Below, piece by piece: positions 1,387 to 62,559 of a stretch of DNA of 64,000 nt. The stretch comes from Candidatus Marinacidobacterales bacterium (lineage in GTDB: Bacteria; Acidobacteriota; Vicinamibacteria; Marinacidobacterales; DATDRI01). Each line of letters begins with the position of its first letter. The stretch's first letter is position 1. A program made the position numbers and the translations under genes. A model generated the notes under the pieces. The model did not search any database and was not told where the DNA came from. It worked only from the letters and a program-made list of their open reading frames with translations. The stretch is taken from assembly GCA_965219415.1 (NCBI GenBank), contig CBDCNP010000001.1:192001-256000 (forward strand). Reading direction: 5' to 3'.

Positions 1387-2761
1387 ATGGTGCCGGCTCT
1401 TTTCTCCCGACGCACCCTTCGCCGCTTTCGCGAATTGAAACTCGCGCCGCCGACGGCCCTCCTCCTCCTCGTCGTCCTCCTCGCCACTCCCCTTGGCGCG
1501 GAGATGCTCTATTTGACGAACGGCCGGCAAATCCAAGTGGAGCGTTATTGGGAAGAAGGCAACCAGGTCTTCTACGAGAGAAACGGCAGCATCTTCGGGT
1601 TTCCTAGTTCGCTCCTCGAGCGAGTGGGGCACGGCGAGGGACGCGCCGCCACCAAGAAGAAGTCAGAATCGGCGAAAGACGCCGTCGAGCCCGGATTTCG
1701 GAACCAGCCCTACGCGAAAGCCGTCGAGCAAGCACGGGCTTCAGCCGACGAAGGCGATCTCGACAAAGCCTCACACTACTACCGTCAAGCCTTACACGCC
1801 GCTCCCGAATCGGTGGTCGCCCGTGTCGAGCTTGGGGAGCTCTACCTGGAACGCGGCGGTCTGTCGGCGGCGCAGATCCAGCTGGAGCTAGCCCAAACGT
1901 AGTGCCCCAGAAGACGCGACCATTCGAGAGCTCTTGGGGGACGCCTACTACCGGCGAGGTCGCACCGCGCTCGCAATCCGAGAGTGGCAAAAGGCACTCG
2001 AGCTCGACCCGGGAGCGAGCATTCTGGACAAGCTGAAACAGGCCCTGCGGGAGAACGACCAGGACATCGACTTCGACGAGATGCGCCGGCCCCACTTCCT
2101 CATCCGCTATGACGGCGCGGTGAACCAATCCATCCGGCGAGAAGTGGCGATGGCTCTCAAGTCGGAATACGAGGAGCTAGCTCAGGAATTTCGCTTCACT
2201 CCCCAAGCTCCGGTGAAAATAACTCTTTACACGAACCGTGAGTTCAGCGAAGTCACCCACGCACCGTCCTGGGTCTCCGCTCTCAATGATGGCGAGATAC
2301 GGATCCCCGTTGAAGGGCTCGACGAATTGAACCCCAAGGTGATTCGGCTGTTGCGACACGAGCTGACCCACACCTTCATCAATGCGCGCACCGGAAACAA
2401 CTGCCCGACCTGGTTTCACGAGGGTTACGCCCAGTTGCGAGCGAACCAAATGCCGGACGGGATGTACGAGTCTCTCAAGGTGGCGAAGGAGTCGGGAGCG
2501 CTGCTGCCGCTTTGGAGCTTGGAGGGCCCGCTCCTCAGTTACTCAACGGAACAGGCGAGATTGGCCTACTATCAATCGCTTGCCGCAACGGAGTACCTCG
2601 TGAAGCGGAAGGGGAAAAATTCGTTGACCCGGATCATGGATCTGTTGGCGCGGCGCTACACCATGAACGATGCGTTGAACAAAGTCATTGGCCTCGACTA
2701 TCAAGAGCTTCAGACCGCCTGGGAAGCGGACCTCGGCCGTTACCGTCCGGGGATGCAGTAG
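1387..2761 (+). CDS. TPR-repeat plus peptidase MA-like metalloprotease (frameshifted ~1893)
   Basis: Signal peptide, TPR helices and an HELTH...WFHEG zincin motif. Removing one C from gcccaaacgt joins ORFs 1387-1902 and 1934-2761 (LELAKRSAPEDATIRELLGDAYY). Confidence 0.75.
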
Positions 2762-2861
2762 GGGTCGGGTTCTGTTTCGCGTAGCGACGCCGGGTGCAAG
2801 ACGGTGCGGACCTGATGCTGTGGAGAACTTCCGCCGAGGGCTTGGCAAGGAGGTCGAGAAA

Positions 2862-3317
2862 ATGCAGAAGTGGTTGAAGTTTTGTAGCGCAGCGGTTGTT
2901 GCGCTATCGCTAGCGGGAACCGGCTTCTTTTCTGTCCATGTCCTGGCCCAGTCGATGGGCAAGGACGCGACCTACGTCAGCCCTACCGGTGGAACCAAGC
3001 TTCGAATCCTCCTCGACGACAGCAACCTAGGCGGCTCCGAAGTCGAGGTGGCGGAGATCGAGTTTCCTCCGGGAGTCGACTCCGGCGCTCACGTGCATGG
3101 GGCAGTGGAAATCTTCTATGTCATCGAAGGCGAGCTCGAGCACATCGTCAATGGAAAGAAATACGTGCTCGGACCGGGCATGATCGATCACGTCCGTCCG
3201 CCCGACGAAGTGATCCACCGCGTCAAAGCGGACGGTCCTCCTTGTAAAGCATTGGTCATCTGGGCTCCCGGCGGCGAAGGGACCCGTATCGCCGAACAGT
3301 GGGAGGCCGAGAACTGA
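2862..3317 (+). CDS. Exported cupin-domain protein
   Basis: RBS aggagg before ATG 2862, signal peptide, cupin motifs HVHGAVEIFYVIEGE and PDEVIH. Confidence 0.8.
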   Translation: MQKWLKFCSAAVVALSLAGTGFFSVHVLAQSMGKDATYVSPTGGTKLRILLDDSNLGGSEVEVAEIEFPPGVDSGAHVHGAVEIFYVIEGELEHIVNGKKYVLGPGMIDHVRPPDEVIHRVKADGPPCKALVIWAPGGEGTRIAEQWEAEN

Positions 3318-3365
3318 GAGCGATTGATGCTCCATGGAATCTTGTCCGGGCGAGGTTCGGATGTA

Positions 3366-4694
3366 CTACCGTCCCCCCGATTCACTAGGCGTCGGGGTCC
3401 GCACTCGGCGGGCCGCGCGGTGGGTGGCGCTCGATGGCGCCATTCTTTCCGCCAGCTCTTTTATTCTCTCGAGGTACGCGTCCATGTACTCGGCCGCGAT
3501 CGGTGGGCCCGGAGGGAAGATCTGCTTGAGCGGATTCACTGGCTTCCCGTGACGAATGAGCCGGAAATCCAAGTGAGCACCGGTCGCCAAGCCGGTGGAT
3601 CCCACGTAGCCGATCACTTCTTTCTGGCCCACGCGCTTGCCGGTCCGTAGCCCCTTGGCGAAGTGAGACAGGTGTAGGTACTTGGACTGGTAACCCATCG
3701 CATGGCGGAGGGTCACCATGCGGCCCGAACCTCCTTTGGTGGAGATACCGGTCACGGTGCCGGCGGCGACCGAATGCACCGGCGTCCCCCGCGGAGCCGC
3801 ATAATCCACACCGAGATGCGGCATGCGGCGTCGATGCACCGGATGAAGCCGACTATAAGAAAACCGCGAGCTGATTCGCTGAAACTTGAGCGGTGCTCTG
3901 AGGAAAGCCTTACGCATCGACTTACCGTTAGGGTCGAAGTAACCCTTCTTCTTGCCTTCCGGATCCACGAAGAGAAAGGCGGAGAGATCGGTCGCCCCGG
4001 AAACGTAACGGGCCGCCAGAAGGTCACCGTAGCCGGCAAATCGGTCGTCGCGGTATAGCTTCTCTACGAGAAGTTCAAACCGATCCCCAGGCCGACTCTG
4101 GGTGTAAAAATCGAAGTCCCAAGCGAAGACTTCGGCGAAGGCGACAACCAAGGGCGCCGACTCTCCTAACGACCCCAGGCTTGCGAAGAGACTTCCTTGC
4201 ACCGAACCCTGGTGCGATACCTCTCGATGCTCGATGACGATGGTGAGTTGGTCACCCACCCAACCACCGTTCTCCGGGCGAACCTCATAAGTCTCGAGGG
4301 CTCCGCGATGAATCCAAATCGCTTCCACATCTGCGGCGCCGGTGTATCGGATCTCGACTTCGTCCCCGGGACGCAAGTGCCGGAGATTGACATGAGGCGT
4401 TAGGGCCTCCGCCATTTGGTGTACCTCGAGCGGAGCGAACCCGTTGCGCTGGAGAAGCGTGGCCAGCGTTTCCCCGCGACGCACACGATCGGGTACGACC
4501 ACCCACGGGTCACGTTCGGTAGACGGGAGGAAGCTGACTTCCGCTAGCTGGGGCGCTTGGAAAGTCGGCAGGTCGACAGGCGAGAAACGCTCCCACGCCG
4601 CCAAACCGACGACGCTCATCCCGTAGAGGCCAACCGCGGCCAACAAGAAGCGTCGCAGTAGGCGAAGTTTCCTACTCGGGCGTGACTTCTTCAC
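3366..4694 (-). CDS. M23 family peptidoglycan DD-endopeptidase (MepM-like)
   Basis: HLGVDYAAP, YLHLS and HLDF motifs; N-terminal membrane anchor. Confidence 0.9.
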   Translation of the reverse strand: MKKSRPSRKLRLLRRFLLAAVGLYGMSVVGLAAWERFSPVDLPTFQAPQLAEVSFLPSTERDPWVVVPDRVRRGETLATLLQRNGFAPLEVHQMAEALTPHVNLRHLRPGDEVEIRYTGAADVEAIWIHRGALETYEVRPENGGWVGDQLTIVIEHREVSHQGSVQGSLFASLGSLGESAPLVVAFAEVFAWDFDFYTQSRPGDRFELLVEKLYRDDRFAGYGDLLAARYVSGATDLSAFLFVDPEGKKKGYFDPNGKSMRKAFLRAPLKFQRISSRFSYSRLHPVHRRRMPHLGVDYAAPRGTPVHSVAAGTVTGISTKGGSGRMVTLRHAMGYQSKYLHLSHFAKGLRTGKRVGQKEVIGYVGSTGLATGAHLDFRLIRHGKPVNPLKQIFPPGPPIAAEYMDAYLERIKELAERMAPSSATHRAARRVRTPTPSESGGR

Positions 4695-28973: not shown

Positions 28974-29002
28974 GCTGACGTCCAAGGGAGGTAGCGCCTG
29001 CT

Positions 29003-29371
29003 CGAGCCGTCCGTAAGCCGAGTTCTGTTCCCCCCCTTGGTTGCCCGCAGGAGGGCGACGATCATTTATCTAGCCGCGACGATTGCTCGCCGCAGTCGAG
29101 CGACCTACCCGGAAGCTTCGGACGGGCCGCCCTCGAACGCTTCCCTATTTGGTCTTGCTCCGTGCGGGGTTTGCCGTGCCTCGGATGTCACCACCCGAGC
29201 GGTGCGCTCTTACCGCACCATTTCACCCTTACCTTCCCCCGAAGGAAGAGGCGGTATATTTTCTGTGGCACTTTCCTTCCCGTCACCGGGACTGGGGGTT
29301 GCCCAGCGCACTGCCCTGGGGAGTTCGGACTTTCCTCCGGCCCGAAGGCCGGCGATCATCTGGTCGACTCG
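29003..29371 (-). ncRNA. rnpB: RNase P RNA, class A
   Basis: Minus strand has GAGGAAAGUCC, AGUGCCACAGAAA and ACAGAACUCGGCUUA; terminal P1 pairing; TATAAT at 29385-29390. Confidence 0.95.
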
Positions 29372-29425: not shown

Positions 29426-31982
29426 TTACTGAATGTAGCCGAGCGAGCGTAACTGCTGCAGCTGATCGGGAGAGAGCGCCACGTCTTCCGCGGCTTGGAA
29501 CTGGGTGGCGAGCGCCTGATGCGCCTCCCACTGAACTTGGAGTCGCTTGCGGTAAGCCTCGACGAGCTCGGGGTAGCGTTCGTTGACGTTGTGGAGAGCA
29601 TAGGGGTCGGAGAACAAATCGTACAGCAGCAGGCGCGGGGCCTCGGCAAAGTACGGATGCGTGGCACCCCAGCGACCCCCCGACGGGATCGCATGACGGC
29701 CGAGGTTGGGATCGGCGCCTTCCTTCACCGGGCTTACCTCTAGAGACGCCCCCCAGCGGCCATCGATCATTTCGATGTTCCCGTACCATTCTCCAGTCTC
29801 GGCATCGACCCGGAACTCGTCGAAGACGACGGGACGTTGCTCCCACCCGTCTTCCCCGGCAGGTCCGGCAGACCCGCGCAATAGGGGCGCTAGCGATTGC
29901 CCTTGCAAGACGTCCGGCTGCGGCAAGCCCACCAGGTCGAGCACGGTGGGCAACACGTCGATCATGGATACCGGCTCCGCAAAGCGTTGACCGCCCGCGT
30001 GGCGTCCGGGCCAAACGAAGATGAGCGGGATGCGACTATTGAAAGCTCCGAGGAGCGCCCCTTCCCAATCGGGAGGCTCTTCCTCGAGCATTCCTCTTCC
30101 GAAACGCGAGTAGCTGCCGGCGGGATGGCCATGGTCAGCGGCGATGATCAGAAGCGTCCGCTCCCATTCGTCACTTGCCTTCAGCCGGTCGACCAGACGC
30201 CCGAGCTGATAGTCCTGGTGCGCCATGGTCTCATCGTAGAGACCGCGGTGGCGCTCGTAGAATGTTTGGCGAGGAATGCTCTCTCGTTCCAGAGCGTGGC
30301 GATACGCGGCGAAGATGCTCGTAAGCTCCAATTACTTGCTGAACATCTTCCCCTCCCACCTGGGAGAGCTCGGCGCTTTGCTCCGGCGAGACGTACAGGC
30401 CGGCGAAGGGAGGCACCGGTCGATAGGGCCAGTGGACGTCGGTCGTTTGGAAGTGCGCCAGATACGGCTCGGCACCGTACCGTTCGCGAATCCGCCAGAA
30501 ATCTTCCTGAAGATCCTTGGAGGATTCTGAATGATGACCGCCTAGGTGCTCGACAAGAACGTCCATCCCGCGTTCCATGCCGATCAGCCGGCCGGCGTTA
30601 GGGTTGGTGGTAAAAGAAGACGTCAAGTATCCGGCGTCGTGCAAATGCTCCGCCATGGTCGTAGCACTCGGCGGCAACGGGGAAGAGTAGACGCCTCGGC
30701 TCAGCCCGCCCAGGACGCTGTGCTGGAGCGAGGTCATGAACGATGCGGTCGACGGCTGAGTCCAAGTCGAGTTGCTGAAGGCGCGTTCGAAGACCGCCCC
30801 TTCCGCAGACAGGCGTTCTATGTTGGGCGTGGTGCGGCGGTTGTATCCATAAACGCTCATGAAGTCCGCCCCCGCACCGTCGATCACATAGAAGATGACG
30901 TTCGGATGGTCGGATCCGTGATCGCCGCCCAGTGTCGGGGCACCCCAAAGAGCCACCGTCCCTTCGCGGGCCGCGTCGGCTTCGAGGAAGAGCGTTACCG
31001 GGCTTCCTTGGTGGGCCTCATAGCTCGAGAGATCCACACTGATGGGTTTCCAACTAGCGGGGTCGGCGTAGGAGTCTTCGAAAACGACCCCGGCCTCTTC
31101 TCCATCGGCCTGTACAGTGATCTTGAAATCGACCGGAATGTCGGAGCGCACGACTCCCAGTTCGAGATCCAATCGACCCCCTGGCGGCACGTTCACGCGA
31201 TAGCTCAGGCTCGCCGGTGTGTGTGCAAAGAGAGTCCGGCGCACCGAGTTCGCCCGCGCCACGCTCTTGACCCCGTAGGGGTCTCGGAAGGTGCCGCCCG
31301 ACGGGACGGCGCTTATCGAAACGATTTCGAAGCTCGCTTCTTCGAGCGCGCCAACCGCAATGCCCAGATGCTTTCAGGGCTTGTCTTCGCTCACGGATTC
31401 GGGGCCCACGGATTCGGGGCCCATCGATCCGGGACGGGTCACCGGGAAGACGTAAGTCTGCAGCTCACCGTCGCTGAATACCGGCGTCGCCTCGACCATG
31501 CCTGCCAAGTGGCCAAGCATGTCGGAGGGCATGACGCCACCTTCGAACTCGAAACCGATCAGCATGCCCCAAACCGGATCCGACGTGCGGGCGCGCAGCA
31601 CGATCGCTTCCCAATCATCGAAATCCCAATCGTCGAGCTCGGTGTAGAGTCCCCCGATGACCAGCATGCCGGCTCGACCCACCTCGAGGAGGGATAGGCG
31701 CAAGGCGCCGTCTATACTCGCGAGCTCCGTGGAGTGGCGGTTTCCCGATCGGCCCGGAATCGCCAAGGGCTTCCATTCCGGTCGCGGCTCGTCGAACTTC
31801 CACTCGATTTCTCGAAGAGCCTCGGTGGAAGGCCCGGCACTCTCGATCTCCGCCGACTCGAGATGCTGCTCGAGGTGGAGTGCAGTATCCGAATCGAGAG
31901 GGCCAGGCGAGCTTCCGCATCCCCCGCCGAAGACTGGCAATACGAACGCGGCAACGTAGGGAAGGTAGCGCTTCGGCTTCAT
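29426..31982 (-). CDS. Sulfatase-like lipoprotein (internal TGA at 31374-31376; frameshift ~30350)
   Basis: PNVIFYVID, STWTQPSTAS, ADHG and LRSLGY motifs. ORFs 31374-31982 and 30231-31262 are in frame across a TGA. Confidence 0.75.
31392..31421. repeat. 15-bp tandem duplication (GPESV x2)
   Basis: cacggattcggggcc occurs twice in tandem. Confidence 0.85.
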
Positions 31983-50206: not shown

Positions 50207-52114
50207 TCAAAGGATCACGCGCTCGCTGCCCACTCTCCGCGTCACGTGCTCTCGGTCCAACCACTCCAAGAGTGGAATGGCGTGCTTTCGAGTGACGCCC
50301 GCCAGATCCTTGAAGAAGGCGACGTCGATCTTGGGCCTTTTTTCCTTCTGCTGCTGCACGGATTGCTTCAACTCTTCGAGGGCGTCGCGATGAAAAACCA
50401 TGCCTTCGGCTACCTTGACCAGAGTCCCTTCTTGGGTGAGGAGGCGTGCGATCCGCTGGAGAAGTTTCAGATCGCGGCGGTTCTTGGAAGCGATTTCCGC
50501 CAACGCGGGCGGTTGATAGCGGGCCTTGAGGAACGTATCTCCGAGGAACGACCAAGCCTCCGCTTCCTCCGAAGACAGCTCGATACGATGGTCACTCGTT
50601 GCCACCCAATCCTTGACGGCTCGAAGCTTTCCGTTCTCGACCATACGACCGAGCGACCATTCGAAAACCTCCAAGCGTGCACGCGCCGTCGCCTTTTCTC
50701 GGAGCTCGCCCCGGGGCATTCCCTCACGCAACGGGTTGGCCTTCTGAAACGACTTCAGCTCCATTAGTATTTGCGCCGAGATTTGCTCGGCCGTCTCCGG
50801 TGCTAGAAACAACAGCGGTTTTTCCGAGACCCGAAAGACTCGTTCGTTCGAAAGCAGAACTTCGACGAGCTTCGCCAGGGAGGCGTCGTCGATACCGAGT
50901 CGTCGCGCCAAAGCGGCACCATCGAGACCGCGCGGACCCGATGTGGCTATGAACAGCGCGCACGCTTCGACTCGATCGCCCGACCGGAGCGCAGCGAGCC
51001 GCTCCACCACATCACGGCTAGTCACCGAGTGCTTCGGGGGGGATGGATCGAGGACTCGACCTCCTCCCAACGTCTCTAGAGGTGAGTAGCGTCGAATGAT
51101 GAATCGATCCAAAGCGGCGGCGACCACCGGCGTCTCGAGACGAAATTGAACGAGTGCGTGCGTCCCTGGAGCAACCGTGCCTTGGTTCCCTAAGACCCTG
51201 ACCCGGGCCACGGCGACGGCGGTCCCGATGTGGAGATGCACCCTCGCCAGATCTTTGACAGGGGTCGGAGACGATGCCAGGACCTCGAGCTCCGCATCCA
51301 GCATCAGACTGGGGAGCAGAGTACCGGGGCGCGCCAGAGTGTCTCCCCGCACCACTTCGCTCATCTCGATGCCCTGCAGATTGACGGCAGTTCGTTGACC
51401 GGCGAGCGCGCGATCTTCGGCGGCACCGTGTACTTGCAACCCGCGCACGCGGGCCTTCGTACCACGGGGCAGAATTTCCACCTCCTCATCCACCGCGAGG
51501 CTGCCCGAGGTCAACGTGCCGGTAACGACTGCCCCGAAGCCCTTCATCGTGAAGACTCGATCCACCGGTAGACGAAAGAGACCGTCGGCCGGACGGCTGT
51601 CGACTCCGGCGGCGATATCGAACAAGACACGTTTCAGCTCATCGATGCCCGCACCGGTTTTCGAAGAGACGTAAATCGTTTGGGCTTCTTCGAGGAAGCT
51701 ACCTTTGGCCAGCTCACTCATTTCCATGGCCGCGATCTCCCGGAGCTCCGGTTCAACCAAGTCCACCTTGGTAATCACCACCACGCCCTTTTTCACCCGA
51801 AGGAGACGGCAAATCTCGAAGTGCTCGCGAGTCTGAGGCATCACCGATTCGTCGGCCGCCACGACGAGCATCACCATGTCGATGCCGCCGGCACCCGCCA
51901 GCATGTTTTTTACGAAACGCTCATGCCCCGGAACATCGACGAACCCGAGGGTAATTCGTTCGGGGTCTGTTAAGAACGCGAACCCCAAGTCGACAGTGAT
52001 TCCCCTCTCTTTTTCCTCCTTCAACCGGTCGGGGTCGGTGCCGGTGAGGGCGCGCACCAACGCACTCTTGCCGTGATCGATATGTCCTGCGGTACCCACG
52101 ATGACATGTTTCAT
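50207..52114 (-). CDS. selB: Selenocysteine-specific elongation factor SelB
   Basis: [44 protein letters not shown]; C-terminal winged helix [15 protein letters not shown]...R. Confidence 0.96.
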
Positions 52115-52191
52115 GGCGTCTCCACGACATGATAGCCGACCGGCAAGGGCGGTTAAACCCTGTGCTATCATGGGATCACAAAGAGGTGTTC

Positions 52192-52995
52192 ATGACCCAA
52201 TCGAATCTCCTGTTCTTGCTTCTGTTCGCTTTCTCCACGTCGGCGGTTGCAACGACCGGTGCGGAAACCGTTCAAAACACCAGCAGCGACAAAGAGGACT
52301 CGGACGAGAACGAGATCCTTAGGGAGCTCGGCGAGATTCGCAAGGAGATCGAAACCTTGCGCAGAGAAGTAGGAGATTTGCGGAGCAAGGTAGGCGACAT
52401 CCACCGTGTTGCGGTGCGCCCCGCCCCCACCGCCCCGCCTCCACCGGACAAGGTTACTTTGGACGAGAGCCGTGCCCTCGGGAGTGCGGATGCACAGATC
52501 GCGATCGTGGAGTTCTCCGATTACCAGTGTCCGTACTGTCAGCGCTTCTTCTTACAAACGTTCCCCTCACTCAAGAAAAACTACGTCGAGACCGGCAAGG
52601 CTCGCTTTTACTTTCGAGACTTCCCTCTCGAACAGATCCACCCTCAGGCCAGATCGTCTGCCATCGCCGCCAATTGCGCGTCGCGACAAGGCGCTTATTG
52701 GGACATGCACCACGGATTGTTCGAGAATCAAAAGAGACTTGGCCCCGAGCTCTACCAGGAGTTGGCAAAGGAGATGGGGCTAGACGTAGCTGCTTTCGAA
52801 GCCTGTCTCGAAGAGCCAGACGAGGACAAGAGAGTCGATCAGGAGCTCGCCTACGGCCGAAGCCTTGCCATTCAGGGAACGCCACACTATTTCGTGGGTC
52901 GCATCGAGGACGGTCAGCTGGTCGACGTGACGCGCGTGAACGGCGCACAACCCTTCGCGGCTTTCTCGAAGGTAATCGAGCCATATCTTCAATGA
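52192..52995 (+). CDS. DsbA-family oxidoreductase
   Basis: EFSDYQCPYC, RDFPL, GTP and GAQP motifs. Confidence 0.9.
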   Translation: MTQSNLLFLLLFAFSTSAVATTGAETVQNTSSDKEDSDENEILRELGEIRKEIETLRREVGDLRSKVGDIHRVAVRPAPTAPPPPDKVTLDESRALGSADAQIAIVEFSDYQCPYCQRFFLQTFPSLKKNYVETGKARFYFRDFPLEQIHPQARSSAIAANCASRQGAYWDMHHGLFENQKRLGPELYQELAKEMGLDVAAFEACLEEPDEDKRVDQELAYGRSLAIQGTPHYFVGRIEDGQLVDVTRVNGAQPFAAFSKVIEPYLQ

Positions 52996-54015: not shown

Positions 54016-56334
54016 TTAGCGACGCCTTCTCTTCCTTCCGCGCGGTGGTTTCGAACGCTCCGACTTCACGTGGCTAGATCGGGAGCCGCCGCGTCCCTGT
54101 TTCGGCCTCAGGCCTTCGATGGCGAGGTCGATCTGGCGCTTTTCCTGATCGACGCGCACGACTTGCACTTCTAGTTGATCGCCGAGACGATACATCTTGC
54201 CGGTGGACTCGCCTCGCAGCGTGTGGGCTTTTTCGTTGAATCGGTAATAGTCATCGGCCAGCGTGCTGATATGAACCAACCCTTCGACAAAAAACTCTTC
54301 TAGCTCCACGAAAAGACCGAAGTTCATCACGCCGGTGACATAACCCACGAAAACATCGCCTAACTTGTCGGCCATGAAGCGTACCTTTTTCCATTTCACG
54401 AGCTCGCGCCCGGCATTCTCCGCCCTCCGCTCCGTACGCGAGGAGTGCTCGGCGATCTCGGGAAGACTCGCCTCTCTCTCCTCCTGAACTTTGGCAGTAG
54501 GCACGCCCCTGGTTCGTACTTCACGAAGCAGGCGATGGACCACCAGGTCGGGATAGCGTCGAATGGGCGACGTGAAGTGTGTGTAGGTCGGGGACGCCAA
54601 GGCGTAGTGACCGGTGTTCTCCATGGCGTAGCGAGCCTGCTTCATCGTTCTCAGCATCAGGAAAGAGATGAGGCGCTCCTCCGGCTTTCCATCGATTCTC
54701 TTGAGCAGTTTCTGAAAACTCTTGGGCTTCAATGCCTCGGAGCTCGCCCGCAAGCGATAACCCAATCCAGAGATGAAATCTTCGAACTCCTCGACTCTAT
54801 CTTCCTCCGGCTTGTCGTGGACACGGTACAAGCTAGGCACGTCTAGCCCCGACAAGTGCACAGCCACAACGTCGTTCGCCAGCAACATGAACTCTTCAAT
54901 GATGTGGTGGGCCACGTTTCGCTCTGCGGCCACGATCCCCGTGACCAACCCCTCGACGTCGAGGAGGATCATTGGCTCCGGTAAATCGAAATCGATGGAG
55001 CCTCGTTTCTCGCGACGAGCACGAAGGATCTGGTAGAGGCCAAGCATGCGTTCGAAGAGAGGAACGAGCTTTTTATTGCGCCGAATGACGTCGGGATCTC
55101 GGTCGACCAGAATCTGCCGCACTTCGGTGTAGGTCATGCGCGCGGCGCTACAGATCACGCCGTCATAGAGCTCGTAGTTCTCGACGCGGCCCTTGGGACT
55201 CACTTCGATACGCACCGACTGCACCAGCCGGTCGACCCCGGGATTGAGACTACAGATTCCGTTCGAGAGCCGCTCCGGGAGCATGGGGACGGCGCTCTCC
55301 GGAAAGTAGACGGACGTCCCGCGTTCGAAGGCTTCTCGATCTAGCGGGCTCTTCTCGCCGACGTAGTGAGCCACGTCGGCGATGTGGACTCCCAAGAGAA
55401 AGTTGCCGTTTTCGAGGAGCTCGACTTGCACCGCGTCGTCGAAGTCACGGGCCGTCTCTCCATCGATGGTCACGATGTCTTCGCTCCGGAAATCGGCACG
55501 GTTCGCGATCGCTTGTTGAGGCACCTCGGTTGGAATGCTCTCTGCTTCTTGGAGCACGTCCTCCGAAAACATGTTCGGAATCTGGTACTTTGCGACGATG
55601 ACCCGCACGTCGACACCCGGTTCATCGACTTGCCCCAAAACCTCGGTAACTTTTCCTAAGGGAGCGCGAAAGGGACTCGGATAACGAACGATCTCGACGA
55701 CGACCATCTCACCCGGTCGAGCTCCTGCCTCTTCTCCGTGTGTCACGAACACTTCGTAGAGAAAGTTGGGATCGAACGGCACGACGCGCGCACCCGCGTG
55801 GTCTTTTTCGAACCGGCCCACCATTTGAGTCGACCCGCGTTCGAGCACTTCGACGATGCGACCCTCCGGCTTCCCGAAACGGCCCTGGCGCTCGATATGA
55901 ACCAACACCCGATCGCCGTGGAGCGCATCGGCGAGCGCCGCACCCGCAACATAGATGTCGGGCTCGGGCTTTCCCTTCTTGCCGGTCTTGCCGGTCTTTC
56001 CGGTCTTTCCTGGCGGGCCCGGCGGGCGGTCCGGCCGCACGAAACCGAAGCCTCCCGGCTCGCAGGAGAGTCGGCCCGCCACCAGGTCCATCTTCTCGGG
56101 CAGGCCGATTCGATCGGAGCGCGTGCGCGCCAGCTTTCCCTCCGCGACCATCTCGCCCAAAATCCGCTTGGCGGCGAGGCGAGCATCTCCCTTGGCGCGA
56201 AGCATCTTGAGAATGTCTTTTTCCGTGGTAGGACGCCCGAGTCGAATCAAGATCTCCTGGACCCGGGTTCGGATCTGGCTATCTGTCTTTTCTGTGAGAG
56301 GGGGCACCGGCGGCAATCTTAGCGCCGTTCCCAA
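54016..56334 (-). CDS. rnr: Ribonuclease R
   Basis: TIDGETARDFDDA, HFTSPIRRYPD, S1 domain and basic tail. Confidence 0.95.
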   Translation of the reverse strand: MGTALRLPPVPPLTEKTDSQIRTRVQEILIRLGRPTTEKDILKMLRAKGDARLAAKRILGEMVAEGKLARTRSDRIGLPEKMDLVAGRLSCEPGGFGFVRPDRPPGPPGKTGKTGKTGKKGKPEPDIYVAGAALADALHGDRVLVHIERQGRFGKPEGRIVEVLERGSTQMVGRFEKDHAGARVVPFDPNFLYEVFVTHGEEAGARPGEMVVVEIVRYPSPFRAPLGKVTEVLGQVDEPGVDVRVIVAKYQIPNMFSEDVLQEAESIPTEVPQQAIANRADFRSEDIVTIDGETARDFDDAVQVELLENGNFLLGVHIADVAHYVGEKSPLDREAFERGTSVYFPESAVPMLPERLSNGICSLNPGVDRLVQSVRIEVSPKGRVENYELYDGVICSAARMTYTEVRQILVDRDPDVIRRNKKLVPLFERMLGLYQILRARREKRGSIDFDLPEPMILLDVEGLVTGIVAAERNVAHHIIEEFMLLANDVVAVHLSGLDVPSLYRVHDKPEEDRVEEFEDFISGLGYRLRASSEALKPKSFQKLLKRIDGKPEERLISFLMLRTMKQARYAMENTGHYALASPTYTHFTSPIRRYPDLVVHRLLREVRTRGVPTAKVQEEREASLPEIAEHSSRTERRAENAGRELVKWKKVRFMADKLGDVFVGYVTGVMNFGLFVELEEFFVEGLVHISTLADDYYRFNEKAHTLRGESTGKMYRLGDQLEVQVVRVDQEKRQIDLAIEGLRPKQGRGGSRSSHVKSERSKPPRGRKRRRR

Positions 56335-56348
56335 TCGAAATCGACTCG

Positions 56349-56377
56349 TTGACAGGACCCGGCGGCGCTCCTATCAT
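56349..56377 (+). promoter_or_regulatory. Sigma70 promoter of tRNA-Leu
   Basis: TTGACA-17 bp-TATCAT. Confidence 0.75.
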
Positions 56378-56402
56378 GGCGTTCGATTGAGGCCTTCCCA
56401 GT

Positions 56403-56488
56403 GCCGAAGTGGCGGAACGGCAGACGCGCTGCGTTCAGGGCGCAGTTCTCTTCGGGGAGTGGGGGTTCGAATCCCCCCTTCGGCACCA
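56403..56488 (+). tRNA. tRNA-Leu (anticodon CAG)
   Basis: Acceptor stem GCCGAAG/CTTCGGC, anticodon arm CTGCG-TTCAGGG-CGCAG, long variable arm, TTCGAAT loop, encoded CCA. Confidence 0.96.
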
Positions 56489-56569
56489 AAAAATAGTCCC
56501 TCCATTCCAACCGTGTTCCTCGGTCCCTGCGGGAATAGCTGACAATCCTTCGATTGCCGCCAAAACCAC

Positions 56570-56601
56570 TTGACCCTGTACCTGGGTCAAAGGTTTACAA
56601 T
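56570..56601 (+). promoter_or_regulatory. MerR-family promoter/operator
   Basis: TTGACC-20 bp-TACAAT (extended spacer) with dyad TTGACCC-N7-GGGTCAA. Confidence 0.8.
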
Positions 56602-56619
56602 GCGGGTAGGAGCAATCGA

Positions 56620-57037
56620 ATGGAAAACGACTCGTTTCTCATCGGCGAACTAGCCCAGCGGGCCAACGTCAATCGCGAGACCTTCCGTTACTATGAACGG
56701 CGGGGACTCCTCAAACCGAGCCGCCGCACCCCCTCCGGCTACCGCGTCTACCGTCCGGAAGCCGAAGAACGGCTAGGTTTCATCAGACGTGCCCAAGCTT
56801 TCGGATTCACACTCGATGAGATCTCAGTGCTACTCGGACTGCGGCCCGACAATCCTCGGAGCTGTCGTCGCGTCTTGGGGATCCTCGACCAGAAAGTAGA
56901 AGAGCTCGCCCAACAAGATTACCGAAATGAAGCGCTTCCATCGGCAAATGTCCAGCTATCGCGACCATTGCGCTCAGACGATTGACAAGGGTTCGAGATG
57001 CCCGGTGATTGCAGACGTATCCAACGTGAAGATCTGA
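56620..57037 (+). CDS. merR: MerR-family metal-responsive regulator (frameshift ~56911)
   Basis: IGELA...RYYERRGLL...GYRVY. Corrected C-terminus gives three Cys (SCRRV, DHC, RCPVI), like Hg-type MerR. Confidence 0.82.
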
Positions 57038-57046
57038 GGAGATATC

Positions 57047-57385
57047 ATGTCCAAGTGGACCGGTTTCGGAGCCGTTGGCGCAAGCCTCGGGGTAGCTCTG
57101 AGCTGGTTGTGCTGCCTCCCTTTCGCGGCTGCATTGGGGGCGGGAGTCGCGGCGGCAGGAGCCGCGCTCACACCACTTCAGCCCTTCATGGCTCTTGCCA
57201 GCGTTTCGCTGCTCGCCATTGCTTTCGTTCAAACACTAAGGGCGCGGGGGTGCGAGGATGGCGAGACCTGCAGCGCCCTATCGAAGCCGCGTCGTTGGCT
57301 CTTTCTAGCGGCAGTCACGGTAGCGACGATCCTCCTGATCACGGTGCCGTACTGGAGCGCCCATCTCATTTACTGGACCCTGTGA
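57047..57385 (+). CDS. merT: MerT-like mercury/metal transport protein
   Basis: Three TM helices, CC pair in TM1 (WLCCLP), loop pair CEDGETC. Confidence 0.8.
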   Translation: MSKWTGFGAVGASLGVALSWLCCLPFAAALGAGVAAAGAALTPLQPFMALASVSLLAIAFVQTLRARGCEDGETCSALSKPRRWLFLAAVTVATILLITVPYWSAHLIYWTL

Positions 57386-57404
57386 CCGCCTGGAGGTGCA
57401 CGCC

Positions 57405-58010
57405 ATGAATCGACGGATTCTAGTAGGAAGCTTAGCTGTGGCAACGCTCGCGGTTCTTTCTGGCGTCGCAGTTCTTCGGAGCTCAGGCGGCAAATCCAGT
57501 TGGAAGGAGCTCGGCTCCGTTAAAGAGCTTAGAGAGCAGTTCAACCAAGACGAGGGTTCGATTCGGATCGTTCTGCTGTTGTCTCCGACGTGACCGGTTT
57601 GTGTCGCGGGGGCCCGGTGGGTCCAATCCAATATTCTCGAGGCTAATCCGGACGCCAACGTCAAGGTCTATGCGGTCTCCTTTCGCATGCTCGCGAGCGA
57701 CCGCATCGCCAAATGGATGGTCGAGCCTGACAATCTTCTCTCGGATCCGCGCACCTTGCATTACTGGGACGAGGAAAAACTCGCTGGACGATACTACGAG
57801 GAGCGCGTGACTCAACTTGGCGATCCCGGCAACGGACGCATCGAATGGGATGCCTATTTTCTCTATTGTCCCGATGCCACATGGGGAGAGGAACCACCGG
57901 AACACATCAGCTGGGGTCGAACCATCGTAGACTCCCGCGAACGGCTGCTCCGAGACTTCACCGCTCTGCTGCACTCCCCTGGAACGACCGAGACCCGTCG
58001 CCAAGAATGA
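57405..58010 (+). CDS. Predicted selenoprotein: membrane-anchored thioredoxin-fold protein with UxxC motif (201 aa, Sec63)
   Basis: ORFs 57396-57593 and 57687-58010 share a frame. Read-through of TGA 57591-57593 gives IVLLLSPT-U-PVC-VAGARWV with no other stop; SECIS-like hairpin follows. Confidence 0.85.
57594..57624 (+). promoter_or_regulatory. Putative bacterial SECIS element
   Basis: GGGCCC[GGU]GGGUCC hairpin, G-first loop 22 nt after UGA. Confidence 0.7.
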
Positions 58011-58016
58011 AGCCTG

Positions 58017-58455
58017 ATGGATTGCTGTCAGCGTGAAGGCGAATCAGTCGACCGCACCTGCCCTCGATGCGGCTCAGTGGGGGCGATCCGTCCAGCTGGT
58101 AACGGTCAACAGCCTTCTAACGGCTCGCGCCCTGGAAAGACTCACTGTGAAGGAGCACCGGTTCTGCGCGACGCCGGACTGCGAGGTCGTCTACTTCTCC
58201 GAAGTGACACTCTTTGGGCGCGAAGACGTTCGAGTACCCGTGTTTCAGAAGGAGCCGTCTGGCCGCCGGATGGTCTGCTACTGCTTCGAGGTTTCCGAGG
58301 ATGACGCCGACGCCGCAGCGGAATCGCGTATCCGCACACACGTGCGGGCTGGGCGCTGCGCTTGCGAGTTGCGAAACCCGGAGGGTAGATGCTGTTTGGG
58401 CAACCTCTGGGCCGTTACCCGTACCACGGTAGGGGAGACCTCACAGAATGGTTGA
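58017..58455 (+). CDS. Cys-rich CopZ-N-terminal-like Zn/[2Fe-2S]-binding protein (frameshift ~58083)
   Basis: CPRCG...FCATPDCEVVYF...VCYCF...CACELRNPEGRCCLGN. Confidence 0.75.
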
Positions 58456-58833
58456 GACCTGCTCGGCTTCCGACAACGATCTGGCTGGCCGCTGGTCGAG
58501 CTTGATCTCGATCTGGTGGCTCCCTGTAGCGGCGATGATCGCTGCGATGTTCGTAAACTCGCCGCTGCGAACCGCGACGTGGACAATTGCCCTGGGCTGG
58601 ACGGGGGGGCCTGTCTCTTGAACGCATACCGCTGTGGTCGTGTGCACTGCTACTTCACTGGTCCGGCCTACATTCTTGGAGCCCTGACGTCTTTGCTCCA
58701 CGGACTGGACGTCGTGTCGCTCGGGTCCCATGGCTGGGCGTGGATCGGCTACACACTCATTGCCGGAAGCGTGCTCTTGAACTACGTTCCGGAGTGGGTC
58801 TGGGAAAGTGTGCCAATCTTAGTTGGGAATTGA
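58448..58833 (+). CDS. Membrane protein with CLLNAYRCGRVHCYFTGP motif (frameshift in G-run ~58605; 3' end abuts IS)
   Basis: ATG overlaps the upstream gene end; about four TM helices; three clustered Cys. Confidence 0.65.
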
Positions 58834-59650
58834 AACGGCTCCAAACCCCGTGGTTTGATGGCGTTGGACAAAACAAAATCAAGCCGCGAAGAAAGGAGCC
58901 GAGATGGGAAGTCTGCTACGTTCGGTCAAGAAACGCAAGAAGTCGCGTCGTTTGGGTGAGGTCGAGATGGTGAGGCACGAGGATTACGGGGAACTCGCGC
59001 TGGACGCCAAGGTAGAGATGATCCGTTGGTTGGTCCCCCTTGGTCTAATGCACGTTCACGAGTTGCTCGACGACGAAGTGAAGGCGTTGGCGGGAGAGCG
59101 ATACTCTCGCAAGGACGAGCTGGAGCGCGGTCGCCGTCCCGGAAGCAACCCGGGCACGGTAGGGCTTGGCGGCCAGCGGGTACCGATCCGTGTGCCACGG
59201 GTTCGGAGCATCGAGGGAGGAGAGATTCCGCTTCGCTGCTACGAGGCGGTGAGCCACGGCGGTGAGGTGAATGATCTTCTGCTGAAACGAGTTCTCTACG
59301 GAATCTCTTGTCGCAACTACGAGGCGGCAGCGGAAGCGATTCCGGGCGCCATCGGGCTGTCGAGCTCAACGGTGTCCGTCGATGATCACCAGCAGACCCT
59401 GGGAGATATCGAGTCCCCGCTCGAGCAGTGAACGCAGGAACGGCGTCAACACCTGCGCGTTCTCCGTGTCCGTCTCCACGAAGCCCAAGAAGCGTTTTTC
59501 CCCGCAAAGCGTGATGCCCAGAGCCACGACCATCGTTGCCTCGGCGAATGTCTTCCCATCCAGAAACAGCGCCACCACATCCTCGCCGGTCAGATCCCGT
59601 TCCTGCATCTCCCGCAGCTTCGCAGCGCTCGCTTGCACGAACCCTCGGGA
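58804..59650 (+). mobile_element. IS256/Mutator-like insertion sequence remnant with internal inversion and 3' deletion
   Basis: Transposase 58904-59377 (IRVPRVR, GISCRNY, LSSSTVS) continues on the minus strand 59650-59375 (SRGFVQ...LFLDGKTF...VALGIT...IIDG). Left boundary approximate. Confidence 0.8.
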
Positions 59651-60360: not shown

Positions 60361-60542
60361 GTTGTTGCCGCCGAAAAATCTATGAACACATAGGCCCGAA
60401 CATCATCGATCGGCCGTGGGCCATCGAGTGAGGGACAAGCTGCAGGGGCAACAAGCTTGCGACCCGTCGGACGTCGAACACAACGCCGATAGACGAGGCG
60501 CTTTGTTAGTGCGCCGCAATGAGGAAAAACGGAGGGTTCCCC

Positions 60543-62559
60543 ATGTACAAGCCAATGTTGAAACAGGTTCACCTCGCAGTCGCGCTGCTGGTCCTCACGG
60601 GTTTGCCGCAGCCACTCCATGCTGAGTCCGCGGTGTCCGATCTCAACGACGATGGGGTGGTGAACGTTCTCGACCTCTTCCAAATAATCGGCCGATTGGG
60701 AACACAGGCGGGTGAAGTGGGGTATCGGGAGGACCTGGACCTGGTCCCCGACGGCGTGATCGACATCAACGACTATCGAACCTTGTTACCCGATTTTGGG
60801 CAAGCGGCGGCCATATCCCCGACGACTCTCACCGGCAGAGTGTTCGACGGCTTGGGCAATCCCCTGCCCGGCGTGACGGTACTGGTGGGGGCCGAACCTG
60901 TTGAGTGACACCACGGATCAGAATGGCGTGTACAGCCTGGGTATTCCTGTTGGTGAAACTGGCGATACCGTGATCACGTTCGATGGTTCCACCGCGATGG
61001 ACCCCACGCCTGGCTTTCTCAGCGGCCAATACCCCACCATTCCCAACAAGCCGATCTTTATCAACGGTGGCACCGAAAACGTGTTTCGGGCCATGTCCCT
61101 GCCGGAGCGGGATCTGGTCGGTTCTGTGGATCTGAGCGTCGGCGGCGTGGAGACCAATACTTTGGATTCAACACATGGTTGCTTAACCAGAATGTGGAGG
61201 TGCAAAACGCGGGGGTCACGTTGGAGGTGCCCACCGGCTGTGAGGTCACCTTTCCTGCGGTAGAGGATCCGGTGCTTTCCATTACCCGGGTCGACCCCGC
61301 CAGGTTGCCGGTGCCGATGCCGCCCGGACTGTCGTCCTCCTTGTTTGTGACCTATCAGCCGGGGGCCGCCGAGATCAACTGTCCCGCGGGTGTCGAGTTG
61401 TTCACCGAATTCGACAACGACGACGGCTTTCCCAATGGTCCGGGTAATCTCCAAGACGGCCCGTTTCTCGCCGGTATCACCAACGGCGTGTTCCAGGAAC
61501 TTGCGGCTTGTGAAGTGTCGGGGGCAGTTGAAGGCCCCACCGGTTTCTTCACCGGCGGCACGGTGCGTTGCGGTCCGATACCCTTGCCGTTCGACTTTGC
61601 CTGGTACCACAGCGACATTCGGCCGCCGACGCCCTGTCCGCGTACCACGGTCGTGGGTACCGTGCGGCTCAACGACGTCCCGATGACCCCGGTCTCCGGG
61701 GCGACGGTCTCGGTGCCGGTGCCGGGAGTAGGCCCGGTGTCGACCGCAGCCGATGGCACGTTCCGCATTCCCAATGTACCGGCCGGGCCAAATGGCACTC
61801 GATGCTTCGTCAATCCCTTTAGCATTCGCGCGTCCGCGTCCAAGGGTGCCGATCTAGGAGTCTCGAAGTTCACCCCGGCGGTATCCGGGGGCATCACCGA
61901 TGTGGGGGATATCAAGTTCGGCATCTCGGGAGTCGTGCAAGGTCAGGTGATCAAGCTGACCAGTGTCGTTCCCTTCGTGGTGACCCCGCTAGAAGGGGCG
62001 GAGATGTCTGTCGATACCGTTCCCTCCCCTGGCTGCTGCCCGGTTGCGGACTTCACTGGTCGTTACAGCCGTCTTCGATGTACCGTCAGGGGGCTATACC
62101 GTCGAAGCTTTCTTCGTCGGCTTCCTTCCGGATCCCGGCGGGGGTTTCGCGTTCAAACAATTCAGCGGCTTTCAAGAGGGCAGCATCAATTTTGACGGGG
62201 CGATCCAGGTCCAGGATTTCCGTTTCACCGGTAACGGCACGGTCGATGTACAAGTGCTGAACCAGGACGGCACCCCCGCACCCTTCATCGATGTCACGCT
62301 CGAAGCACTCGGCGGCGGCCTGGGCGGTGGCTTCGTGGCGCCGAACGAATTCTTCTTTGGATTCACCAACTTCGAGGGCCGGCAGACATTCGAGGAGGTG
62401 CCGCAGGGACCGTGCGAGATCACCGTGTCGGATTTTGACTCTGAAACCGAGGACCCCATCGTAATCGCGACGTTGGGGCCCGAGGACGGCTGCTTCGTCA
62501 ACCAGCACGGGGAGGTCCTGGACCTCACTGTGAACTTGCCGAATGGCAACGGGACCTAA
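60543..62559 (+). CDS. Secreted protein with dockerin/EF-hand-like repeat and carboxypeptidase-regulatory-like domains (at least 3 frameshifts)
   Basis: Signal peptide; DLNDDGVVNVLD and DLVPDGVIDIND; LTGRVFDGLGNPLPGVTV; STAADGTFRIPNVPAG. Confidence 0.62.

Follow-up and report, generated by a model that had tools for sequence, protein, structure and literature searches.

A mer-like cassette without merA carries an exported selenoprotein gene directly after merT in a Marinacidobacterales genome and may serve soft-metal handling

We analyzed a cassette of five genes in a 64,000-nucleotide (nt) stretch of a Candidatus Marinacidobacterales genome (NCBI GenBank assembly GCA_965219415.1, contig CBDCNP010000001.1, positions 192,001 to 256,000 of the forward strand), which is called the window below and whose own coordinates are used throughout. 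The cassette follows a MerR-type promoter/operator (56570..56601, + strand), and its third gene (57405..58010, +) is an intact gene for an exported selenoprotein of 201 amino acids (aa), placed next to an intact merT-like importer gene of 112 aa (57047..57385, +). As judged from sequence, and with moderate confidence, we read the cassette as a MerR-controlled, mer-like system for a soft, thiophilic metal, most likely Hg(II), in which the exported selenocysteine (Sec) protein would take the place of MerP. The assignment of the protein as a selenoprotein is strong. That the metal is mercury we infer from the company that the gene family keeps.

The promoter consists of a -35 element, TTGACC (56570-56575), and a -10 element, TACAAT (56596-56601), separated by a 20-nt spacer, and a perfect 7-nt inverted repeat, TTGACCC/GGGTCAA, at 56570-56576 and 56584-56590 forms the dyad. 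Both the long spacer and the dyad had been described in the initial annotation of this DNA and were verified by direct reading and by an inverted-repeat search; the promoter was absent from the output of a consensus scanner because that program accepts spacers of 16-18 nt only. Downstream of the promoter lie five co-oriented genes on the + strand, separated by gaps of 9, 19 and 6 nt and one overlap of 8 nt: a merR-family metal-sensor gene (56620..57037), the merT-like gene, the Sec gene, a gene for a cysteine (Cys)-rich protein resembling the N-terminal domain of CopZ (CopZ-N; 58017..58455), and a gene for a small multi-pass membrane protein (58448..58833). The close spacing and common orientation were as first described, but merR, the CopZ-N-like gene and the membrane protein gene are each broken by a frame change, which leaves only two of the five as single open frames. 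The cassette was compared with relatives of two kinds, namely loci found by a genome search with the family alignment (L001 to L023) and relatives from the protein collection (given P-numbers). The closest relative is L001, on a contig of a metagenome-assembled genome from the Vicinamibacteria, whose proteins are 82-87% identical to those in the window. All 32 nt of the promoter are identical in the window and L001, and the flanking sequence is different.

The in-frame TGA of the third gene (57591-57593) corresponds to residue 63 in the motif SPT-U-PVC. TGA occupies this codon in the window and in every one of the 21 loci in which the motif is covered, and the sequence to either side is conserved; the genome search gave 23 loci, and two of these lack the motif region, as L022 covers only residues 119-193 and L023 only residues 129-181. 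The residues F46, R54, L57, L58, S60-T62 and C66 around the Sec position are invariant. In the first protein search, 16 of 21 relatives were open reading frames (ORFs) cut at or after the TGA, and four were full-length proteins with CPVC at the site (P0014, P0015, P0016 and P0018). The database records of the Sec forms in that search were, where a source name was given, all named 'hypothetical protein'. One further relative, P0012, carries W at the Sec site and also reads through the merT stop codon, from the MerT C-terminus into the Sec protein, and was therefore translated under a code in which TGA is Trp. In a family tree of 25 rows, from which L019 was omitted as a near-copy of L017, the Cys forms nest among the Sec forms. 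The alternation of Sec with Cys, which the initial annotation had proposed as a check, was thus found.

A hairpin resembling a bacterial Sec insertion sequence (SECIS) follows the codon. In the window it spans 57610..57624 (+), with a 6-bp stem and a GGU loop; across the family it begins 17 nt after the UGA and has a helix of 5-6 bp with G and U in the loop. Over 22 sequences, 95.5% of 132 cells were paired, two pairs showed compensatory changes, and the covariation score was reached by none of 500 shuffles; control hairpins slid along the alignment paired in 32-59% of cells, and RNAalifold recovered the same helix. In particular, the pair 21-33, which joins the third positions of a Gly and a Val codon, is CG in 18 sequences, GC in two, GU in one and UA in one (n=22). 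Third-position entropy was 0.00-0.99 bits at the four hairpin codons, compared with 1.00-1.88 bits at 14 other nearby four-fold codons. Over the window sequence, no Rfam SECIS family matched at the gathering threshold or at E<=10, and the window hairpin region, folded as a single sequence, did not improve on the energies of shuffled sequences (z = +1.09, -0.26 and +0.22). Taken together, the conserved TGA, the Cys homologues and the covarying hairpin show that the UxxC selenoprotein first noticed in this DNA is genuine.

The window also contains selB, the gene for the Sec-specific elongation factor (50210..52171, - strand; PF00009, PF25461 Beta-barrel_SelB, and the SelB wing domains PF09106 and PF09107), which points to an organism that decodes UGA as Sec. 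Searches of the 64 kilobases (kb) with Pfam and ARAGORN did not find selA, selD or tRNA-Sec. A crude scan for further Sec candidates in the window gave none, but it also missed the known Sec gene and so carries no weight. Within 50210-52992, selB adjoins a divergent DsbA-like (Thioredoxin_4) gene, with ORF calls that overlap by about 40 nt at their starts.

The Sec protein belongs to a large family. A profile search of 1.84 billion representatives reached 3,192 clusters (counted at 50% identity; about 3,200 in all) with E<=0.001, of which 1,053 passed E<=1e-10 and 89 passed E<=1e-30. By regular expression, among the best 150 of the 3,192, 54 have C-x-x-C at the site, 91 lack the N-terminal part, and two have W, two S and one G. 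No Pfam model matched any of ten Cys forms at E<=0.05, or the window protein and P0014 at E<=1, and no NCBIfam model matched the window protein, P0014 or P0143. Additionally, none of the Pfam or NCBIfam models listed among the 119 prokaryotic selenoprotein families in Table 1 of PMC13188914 matched the Sec protein or its Cys forms, a comparison that covers the families given there by such models and not those given solely by a CDD or PANTHER identifier. The accessible parts of the Haft 2022 preprint, deep-Sep, BSepDB and the 2021 mer survey hold no mention of the family, and a literature search, which did not extend to supplements, found no paper on it. A Cys form searched with tblastn against 72,556 plasmids gave no match.

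All 22 complete N-termini carry a hydrophobic 15-mer after K/R residues, the window protein has an N-terminal signal/anchor of this kind, and the Sec proteins of L004 and L016 have lipoboxes; from the basic-then-hydrophobic leader in every case, the domain is therefore placed outside the cytoplasm. Fusions link the domain to an importer and to metal-binding domains. In L010 (7644-8489), one ORF of 282 aa encodes MerT and the Sec domain together; the mature domain follows the third MerT helix after about 12 residues, and the junction holds no signal peptide. The Cys form P0225 joins a MerP-like HMA domain (TIGR02052, 65.3 bits) to the family domain, P0173 is likewise fused to HMA, and P0148, an exported Cys form of 708 aa, contains two copies of the family domain, an HMA domain and a DF-family domain (residues 608-686).

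The protein upstream, which the initial annotation had called merT-like, is indeed of that type, with a score of 21.9 bits on PF02411 (cut-off 32.9), a CC pair in the first hydrophobic helix and a C-x5-C pair in a loop, which by the topology of MerT would lie on the cytoplasmic side. Both pairs are retained without exception in the 11 relatives, nine of which match PF02411 at E<=0.001. The window protein also weakly matched the MerTP model NF033556 (37.3 bits) and NF045683 (22.2 bits).

To place the Sec gene in its surroundings, 189 ORFs lying within 3.5 kb of it in the 23 loci were searched with Pfam, selected ORFs with NCBIfam, and the locus DNA with tblastn; several loci are short (3.7-6.4 kb) and ORFs were picked by a rule based on GC content at third codon positions, so small genes were possibly missed. 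The order merT-then-Sec gene is conserved: besides the window, 10 of 21 related loci have merT immediately upstream. A mercury importer of some kind lies beside the Sec gene in 13 of 22 cases: MerT in 11, a weak MerC-like protein in one (L005; 26.3 bits, cut-off 27.6) and MerF in one (L016; 60.3 bits, above its cut-off of 50). These importer-adjacent genes come from Acidobacteriota, Binatota, Vulcanimicrobiota and Chloroflexota. They recur across the family tree and do not make up a single clade; the importer label needs 7 changes on it compared with a mean of 8.6 for shuffled labels. MerR-type regulators are present in L001, L004, L005, L010, L011, L012 and L014.

Homologues of MerA, MerB and HMA/MerP were sought with Pfam and tblastn and none were found in the 64 kb, in agreement with the first reading, in which no merP, merA or merB followed the cassette. 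This proved to be the common state, with the Sec protein in the MerP position: an HMA/MerP-like protein is present in one of 21 related loci (L012) and MerA in one (L016). The only true MerA is that of L016 (TIGR02053, 504 bits, cut-off 454), and the only MerB is that of L007, next door to the Sec gene (PF03243, 108.8 bits). A Pyr_redox_2 protein in L003 was considered as a MerA and rejected as a generic FAD oxidoreductase (NF004992, 814.9 bits). Conservation of the full set of five genes, in contrast, was not borne out, since CopZ-N occurs in 7 of 23 loci at two positions, either after the Sec gene or before merR, and the family of the fifth gene in three loci (L010, L011 and L014).

Several related loci carry further genes of interest. 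In L006 (2398-2664) and L009 (8442-8720), a glutaredoxin-like gene with an in-frame TGA (PG-U-LFC) lies directly 3' of the Sec gene; the Pfam Glutaredoxin match begins at model position 16 because the scanned ORF starts after the TGA. In L004 (7205-7576) and L005 (4539-5390), a Cys form of the DF (seleno)protein family (NF049942, below cut-off) lies between merR and the importer gene. L016 (1-8388) is a Chloroflexota heavy-metal island with the Sec gene at the contig end; its upstream part has two MerR-like genes and an 819-aa ORF (1906-4362), with HMA-like tblastn matches at 1712-2187, and the order onward is ArsR, the true MerA, MerF, an unassigned multi-pass membrane protein of 299 aa that contains the motifs NPC and SCTLP, and lastly the Sec gene.

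On this evidence the pathway can be outlined as follows. The three-Cys MerR, once metal-bound, would activate the promoter with the 20-nt spacer. The Sec protein, exported by its signal/anchor, would hold the metal between the U63 selenolate and the C66 thiolate and pass it to MerT, whose first helix has the receiving CC pair; MerT would then move it onward to its cytoplasmic C-x5-C pair. There the cytosolic CopZ-N-type Cys-rich protein, and perhaps the small Cys-bearing membrane protein, would take it over. Metal binding by U63 and C66, the order of the hand-off and the fate of the metal we infer from gene order and motifs. Capture and hand-off are suggested because the gene order is MerP-like, the domain is fused to MerT in L010 and is exported, the U/C-x-x-C site offers two ligands, and three families of mercury importers are involved.

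Several observations weigh against this proposal. Model bacteria that import Hg but lack MerA become hypersensitive to it; a merA-less importer therefore depends on some other sink for the metal, and none was identified in the loci examined. Eight of the 22 Sec genes have no adjoining importer (L003, L007, L013, L015 and L017-L020), and in L021 only a small CC-bearing membrane protein lies beside the Sec gene. The window MerT falls below the PF02411 cut-off. In L006, L008 and L009 the regulator is CsoR-type, with a C..H..C pattern, rather than MerR; this pattern is the mark of Cu(I) sensors. L012 holds both a separate HMA protein and the Sec protein, and together with the MerP-like fusion in P0225 this means that the domain may work beside MerP rather than replacing it. 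Other family members are fused to unrelated domains (beta-lactamase/PDZ, aspartyl protease and YceI). Three genes of the window copy are frameshifted. Finally, the U/C-P-x-C motif, which follows a hydrophobic strand and precedes a helix-like segment, also has the appearance of a redox-active dithiol site.

This last point bears on a different role, in which the Sec protein would be an extracytoplasmic selenol/thiol-disulfide oxidoreductase that keeps the exported Cys residues of metal importers and binders (MerT, MerP-like domains) reduced, or repairs thiols damaged by metal or oxidants, and is not a metal carrier. We regard this as the main rival and as somewhat unlikely, though several features besides the motif and its setting suit it. 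The only similarities to known proteins are weak and local and fall at the CxxC of redox proteins: the family profile gave E=0.19-0.79 against PDB sequences of a protein disulfide oxidoreductase, a glutaredoxin-like protein and a thioredoxin, and hhalign of the family against DsbA-like and AhpC/TSA-like proteins gave local CxxC matches with probability below 5%. The best profile match in the PDB, the receptor-associated protein RAP (E=0.0028), was a short repeat match and was regarded as chance. In three Cys forms (P0172, P0174 and P0178) the N-terminal part is a fused multi-pass membrane domain that contains FNPCG, and a similar membrane protein adjoins the L016 Sec gene; such proteins would suit a supply of electrons. 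A CcdA/DsbD-like identity was tried for the 299-aa protein of L016 and for the N-termini of the three fusions and was not adopted, as no Pfam, NCBIfam or PDB match was found and the resemblance is one of motif only. The fusion or adjacency to a MerP-like domain (P0225, L012) and the eight loci without an importer also fit an enzyme of this kind. On the other side, neither a thioredoxin fold nor a partner for electron transfer is established by any hidden Markov model, PDB or profile match, a membrane supplier of reductant is absent from most loci, and the fusion to the MerT C-terminus in L010, together with the fixed order of merT and then the Sec gene, is how a MerP behaves.

For the capture of a metal by the Sec protein, the choice of metal is a separate matter. 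The window MerR matched PF13411 (65.7 bits), PF00376 (52.6 bits) and PF09278 (51.7 bits), and the best NCBIfam models for its N-terminal piece were ZntR (89.8-91.6 bits) and MerR (86.2 bits), all below their cut-offs. As the protein lies below the equivalog cut-offs of MerR, ZntR and CadR alike, these models assign it no metal. The description of the gene as a three-Cys merR was right in that three Cys and the MerR-family domains are present, but the Cys are spread over two frames. Two of the Cys form C-x9-CP in the window and L001, compared with C-x8-CP in L004, L005 and L010; MerR is the top NCBIfam model for the regulators of L001, L004 and L005. A cassette built in this way could instead serve a different soft metal, such as Cu(I), Ag(I), Au(I) or Cd(II), an alternative that is unlikely but by no means negligible. 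The narrow lead of ZntR over MerR and the C-x9-CP spacing speak for it, as do the CsoR-type regulators of L006, L008 and L009, the origin of the CopZ-N domain in a copper chaperone (PDB 2hu9), and metal-efflux genes (OEP, HlyD/CusB-like, CDF and RND) near several loci. In the opposite direction, the partners of the family are three importer types of mer operons, MerT, MerC-like and MerF; MerA (L016) and MerB (L007) are the only detoxifying enzymes beside it; and no copper-specific enzyme was found adjoining a Sec gene. Mercury is preferred because of these MerA, MerB, MerC-like and MerF neighbours, the C-x8-CP MerR proteins of L004, L005 and L010, and the L005 promoter dyad CCGTAC..GTACGG, which is the classic merO pattern.

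The last two genes of the cassette are the candidates for intracellular partners. As first described, the fourth gene encodes a Cys-rich protein of the CopZ N-terminal, Zn/[2Fe-2S] type: its second-frame piece alone scored 107.7 bits on NF047645, above the cut-off of 100, and 48.1 bits on PF18423, and the intact L001 copy matched PDB 2hu9_A with E=8.9e-14. The motif C-x6-C-G-R-V-H-C, also noticed at the outset, is present in the last gene, which was assigned by family alignment and tblastn; its second piece matched L010, L014 and L011 in tblastn with E=2e-4 to 6e-3. The family of this membrane protein has 720 matches, all unnamed or called 'hypothetical protein', and no Pfam model; the window protein itself matched neither Pfam nor NCBIfam. 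Its members (e.g. L010 8919-9305) are small membrane proteins, about 120 aa long, in which an N-terminal CC is combined with the motif C..N..RNR..HC..TGP. They were compared with MerT as a possible distant relative, and this was rejected at an hhalign probability of 1%.

The initial annotation had further cautioned that an insertion sequence (IS) at 58804 may have removed downstream genes. We could not confirm a boundary there: only two fragments of an IS256-family transposase, in opposite orientation, lie at 58904..59638 (the + strand piece matches PF00872 model positions 34-138 with 15.5 bits, the - strand piece positions 180-234 with 29.2 bits), and a search for terminal inverted repeats of the element found none. 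As judged from the DNA, the IS256 pieces are a decayed IS and not a whole element. The removal of merA was not upheld either. The L001 cassette ends at a convergent glycosyltransferase gene after copZ-N, that of L010, which has the same gene set as the window, is followed by a kinase gene, and that of L014 by a short-chain dehydrogenase gene. As these cassettes end at unrelated genes without merA, the IS in the window did not remove it.

The condition of the window copy was assessed by comparison with L001. In merR, frameshifted near 56909-56913, the window has one base more than L001 at about position 56912; the N-terminal 98 aa are in one frame and the C-terminal part, with two of the three Cys (C-x9-CP), in another, and the L001 gene is a single frame of 137 aa. 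The CopZ-N-like gene has one extra base relative to L001 at a G5 run (58079-58083), which leaves its first 22 aa, with a CxxC, in the other frame. The membrane protein gene changes frame at a G7 run (58603-58609), where an N-terminal piece of 54 aa meets a C-terminal piece of 75 aa, and the combined pieces span the family alignment. The merT and Sec genes are intact. The ratio of nonsynonymous to synonymous substitution rates (dN/dS) between the window and L001 was 0.16 in merT and 0.21 in the Sec gene; copZ-N gave 0.32 and the C-terminal part of merR 0.19. Any inactivation is therefore recent, or else the frame changes are consensus errors; the window copy would thus be either recently inactivated or a bearer of assembly indel errors.

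Whatever the family does elsewhere, the cassette in this genome may be a dead remnant in which nothing functions, at the decaying edge of an island associated with tRNA-Leu. We give this a chance only slightly short of even. Three frame changes fall within 2.2 kb, and the following 3.7 kb contain only the oppositely oriented IS256 pieces and a gene of about 2 kb spread over four overlapping frames; large genes elsewhere in the window are intact, also across homopolymer runs of 7, and related loci decay too, L022 being a deletion remnant. Set against this, two of the three frame changes fall where consensus indel errors are typical, namely in runs of G. Another gene of the window, for a sulfatase, is likewise split, and L014, on a megabase-scale contig, also has a frame change inside its own Sec gene. 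The dN/dS values against L001 give no sign of a long relaxed period, and merT and the Sec gene have stayed intact. In L014 (7870-8100), it is the signal peptide of the Sec protein that lies in a different frame from the mature domain. L022 (7786-8749) has a truncated merR, the partial Sec protein and an intact copZ-N.

A tRNA-Leu(CAG) gene (56403..56488, +; ARAGORN; Rfam RF00005, 52.7 bits) precedes the cassette, which begins right after its 3' end. Homology between the window and L001 (window 56330-56625; L001 6930-7225) starts within the 3' end of the tRNA-Leu and stops at the copZ-N stop codon. Before the common promoter, L001 has only a look-alike of the tRNA-Leu 3' end of about 25 nt, and it has a DNA ligase gene where the window has the tRNA and RNase R genes. 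From its sequence context, the cassette looks like a unit, roughly 2 kb long, on the margin of an island associated with tRNA-Leu; an integrase was not seen in the 64-kb window. Beyond the cassette, the gene of about 2 kb at 60519-62556, with dockerin-like and CarboxypepD_reg-like matches, is divided among four overlapping ORFs in two alternating frames, and several more frame changes therefore lie just downstream. The sulfatase gene (29429-31262, -), in two overlapping frames with model positions 1-170 and 198-300, showed the only apparent frameshift noticed outside the 56.5-62.6 kb region. A class A RNase P RNA is encoded at 28999-29371 (-).

Among the known systems close to the cassette is the narrow-spectrum mer operon of the Tn21/Tn501 type (merR-merT-merP-merA), with which it shares a three-Cys MerR, a long-spacer promoter with a dyad, a MerT with both Cys pairs and an exported CxxC-type protein right after merT. 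In contrast, the exported protein here carries Sec and has no match to HMA/MerP (PF00403, TIGR02052), 20 of the 21 related loci, like the window, have no MerA, and merR is co-oriented and first in the gene order. MerTP fusions (NF033556) and the MerT/CopZ fusion-like selenoprotein (NF045683) resemble the L010 fusion in having MerT and an exported metal domain in one chain, and they show the use of Sec in transport proteins of the Hg type; the fused domain is HMA there, whereas here the Sec lies in a separate, non-HMA domain with U-x-x-C. The fourth gene is of the same Cys-rich Zn/[2Fe-2S] type as the N-terminal domain of Archaeoglobus fulgidus CopZ (PDB 2hu9), but it stands alone in a mer-like cassette, without the C-terminal HMA half. 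A conceptual likeness exists to the Scs copper-tolerance system (ScsB/ScsC/ScsD), in which exported CxxC proteins with Cys-bearing membrane partners act against a soft metal. Scs proteins are not known to be selenoproteins or to be linked to MerT, and the likeness to the Sec protein is one of concept, as no sequence relation was found or tested.

Mercury resistance is understood through import by MerT/MerP and reduction by MerA. The metal-handling selenoproteins reported so far are Sec variants of known domains, namely MerT, HMA, P-type ATPases and SAO proteins. Among these, MerT selenoproteins carry Sec within a CU motif, as described in the accessible part of Haft 2022 (10.1101/2022.07.06.499078). 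The same part of that preprint describes the SAO system of Clostridioides difficile and other anaerobes, mostly Firmicutes, as a cluster of (seleno)proteins proposed for mercury-like metal species, which includes the thioredoxin-like UxxC protein SaoT, a MerB-like lyase and an ABC transporter (10.1101/2022.07.06.499078). Set beside the SAO system as described there, the loci related to the window likewise have several (seleno)protein families, namely the Sec-glutaredoxins of L006 and L009 and the DF family of L004 and L005. No SAO model matched the window proteins, however, and MerT and MerR occur here in place of an ABC transporter, mostly in Acidobacteriota rather than Firmicutes. The domain described here has neither a Pfam nor an NCBIfam model; it neighbours mercury importers of three kinds, is joined to MerT in one genome and often carries Sec.

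For the family as a whole, found mostly in Acidobacteriota but also in Binatota, Chloroflexota, Vulcanimicrobiota and Fidelibacterota, we tentatively propose, as something possible rather than probable, that widespread and uncatalogued exported selenoproteins capture Hg(II) or another soft metal through a selenolate-thiolate pair and feed MerT, MerC or MerF in the place of MerP, which would amount to selenium-dependent mercury uptake followed by intracellular sequestration or relay. Such a relay would involve CopZ-N-type Fe-S/Zn proteins, DF-family (seleno)proteins and Sec-glutaredoxins. A model of the family in annotation libraries would let such genes be called correctly whether the protein captures metal or maintains thiols, and a redox-maintenance enzyme would still be a new selenoprotein family. 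If the selenium-based capture site is real, it would offer a testable case of Sec as a metal ligand outside the cell, and of mercury handling without merA in lineages where MerA is rare, as the accessible part of the 2021 mer survey reports it in only 7 Acidobacteria genomes. In these organisms, the cycles of selenium and mercury would then be linked.

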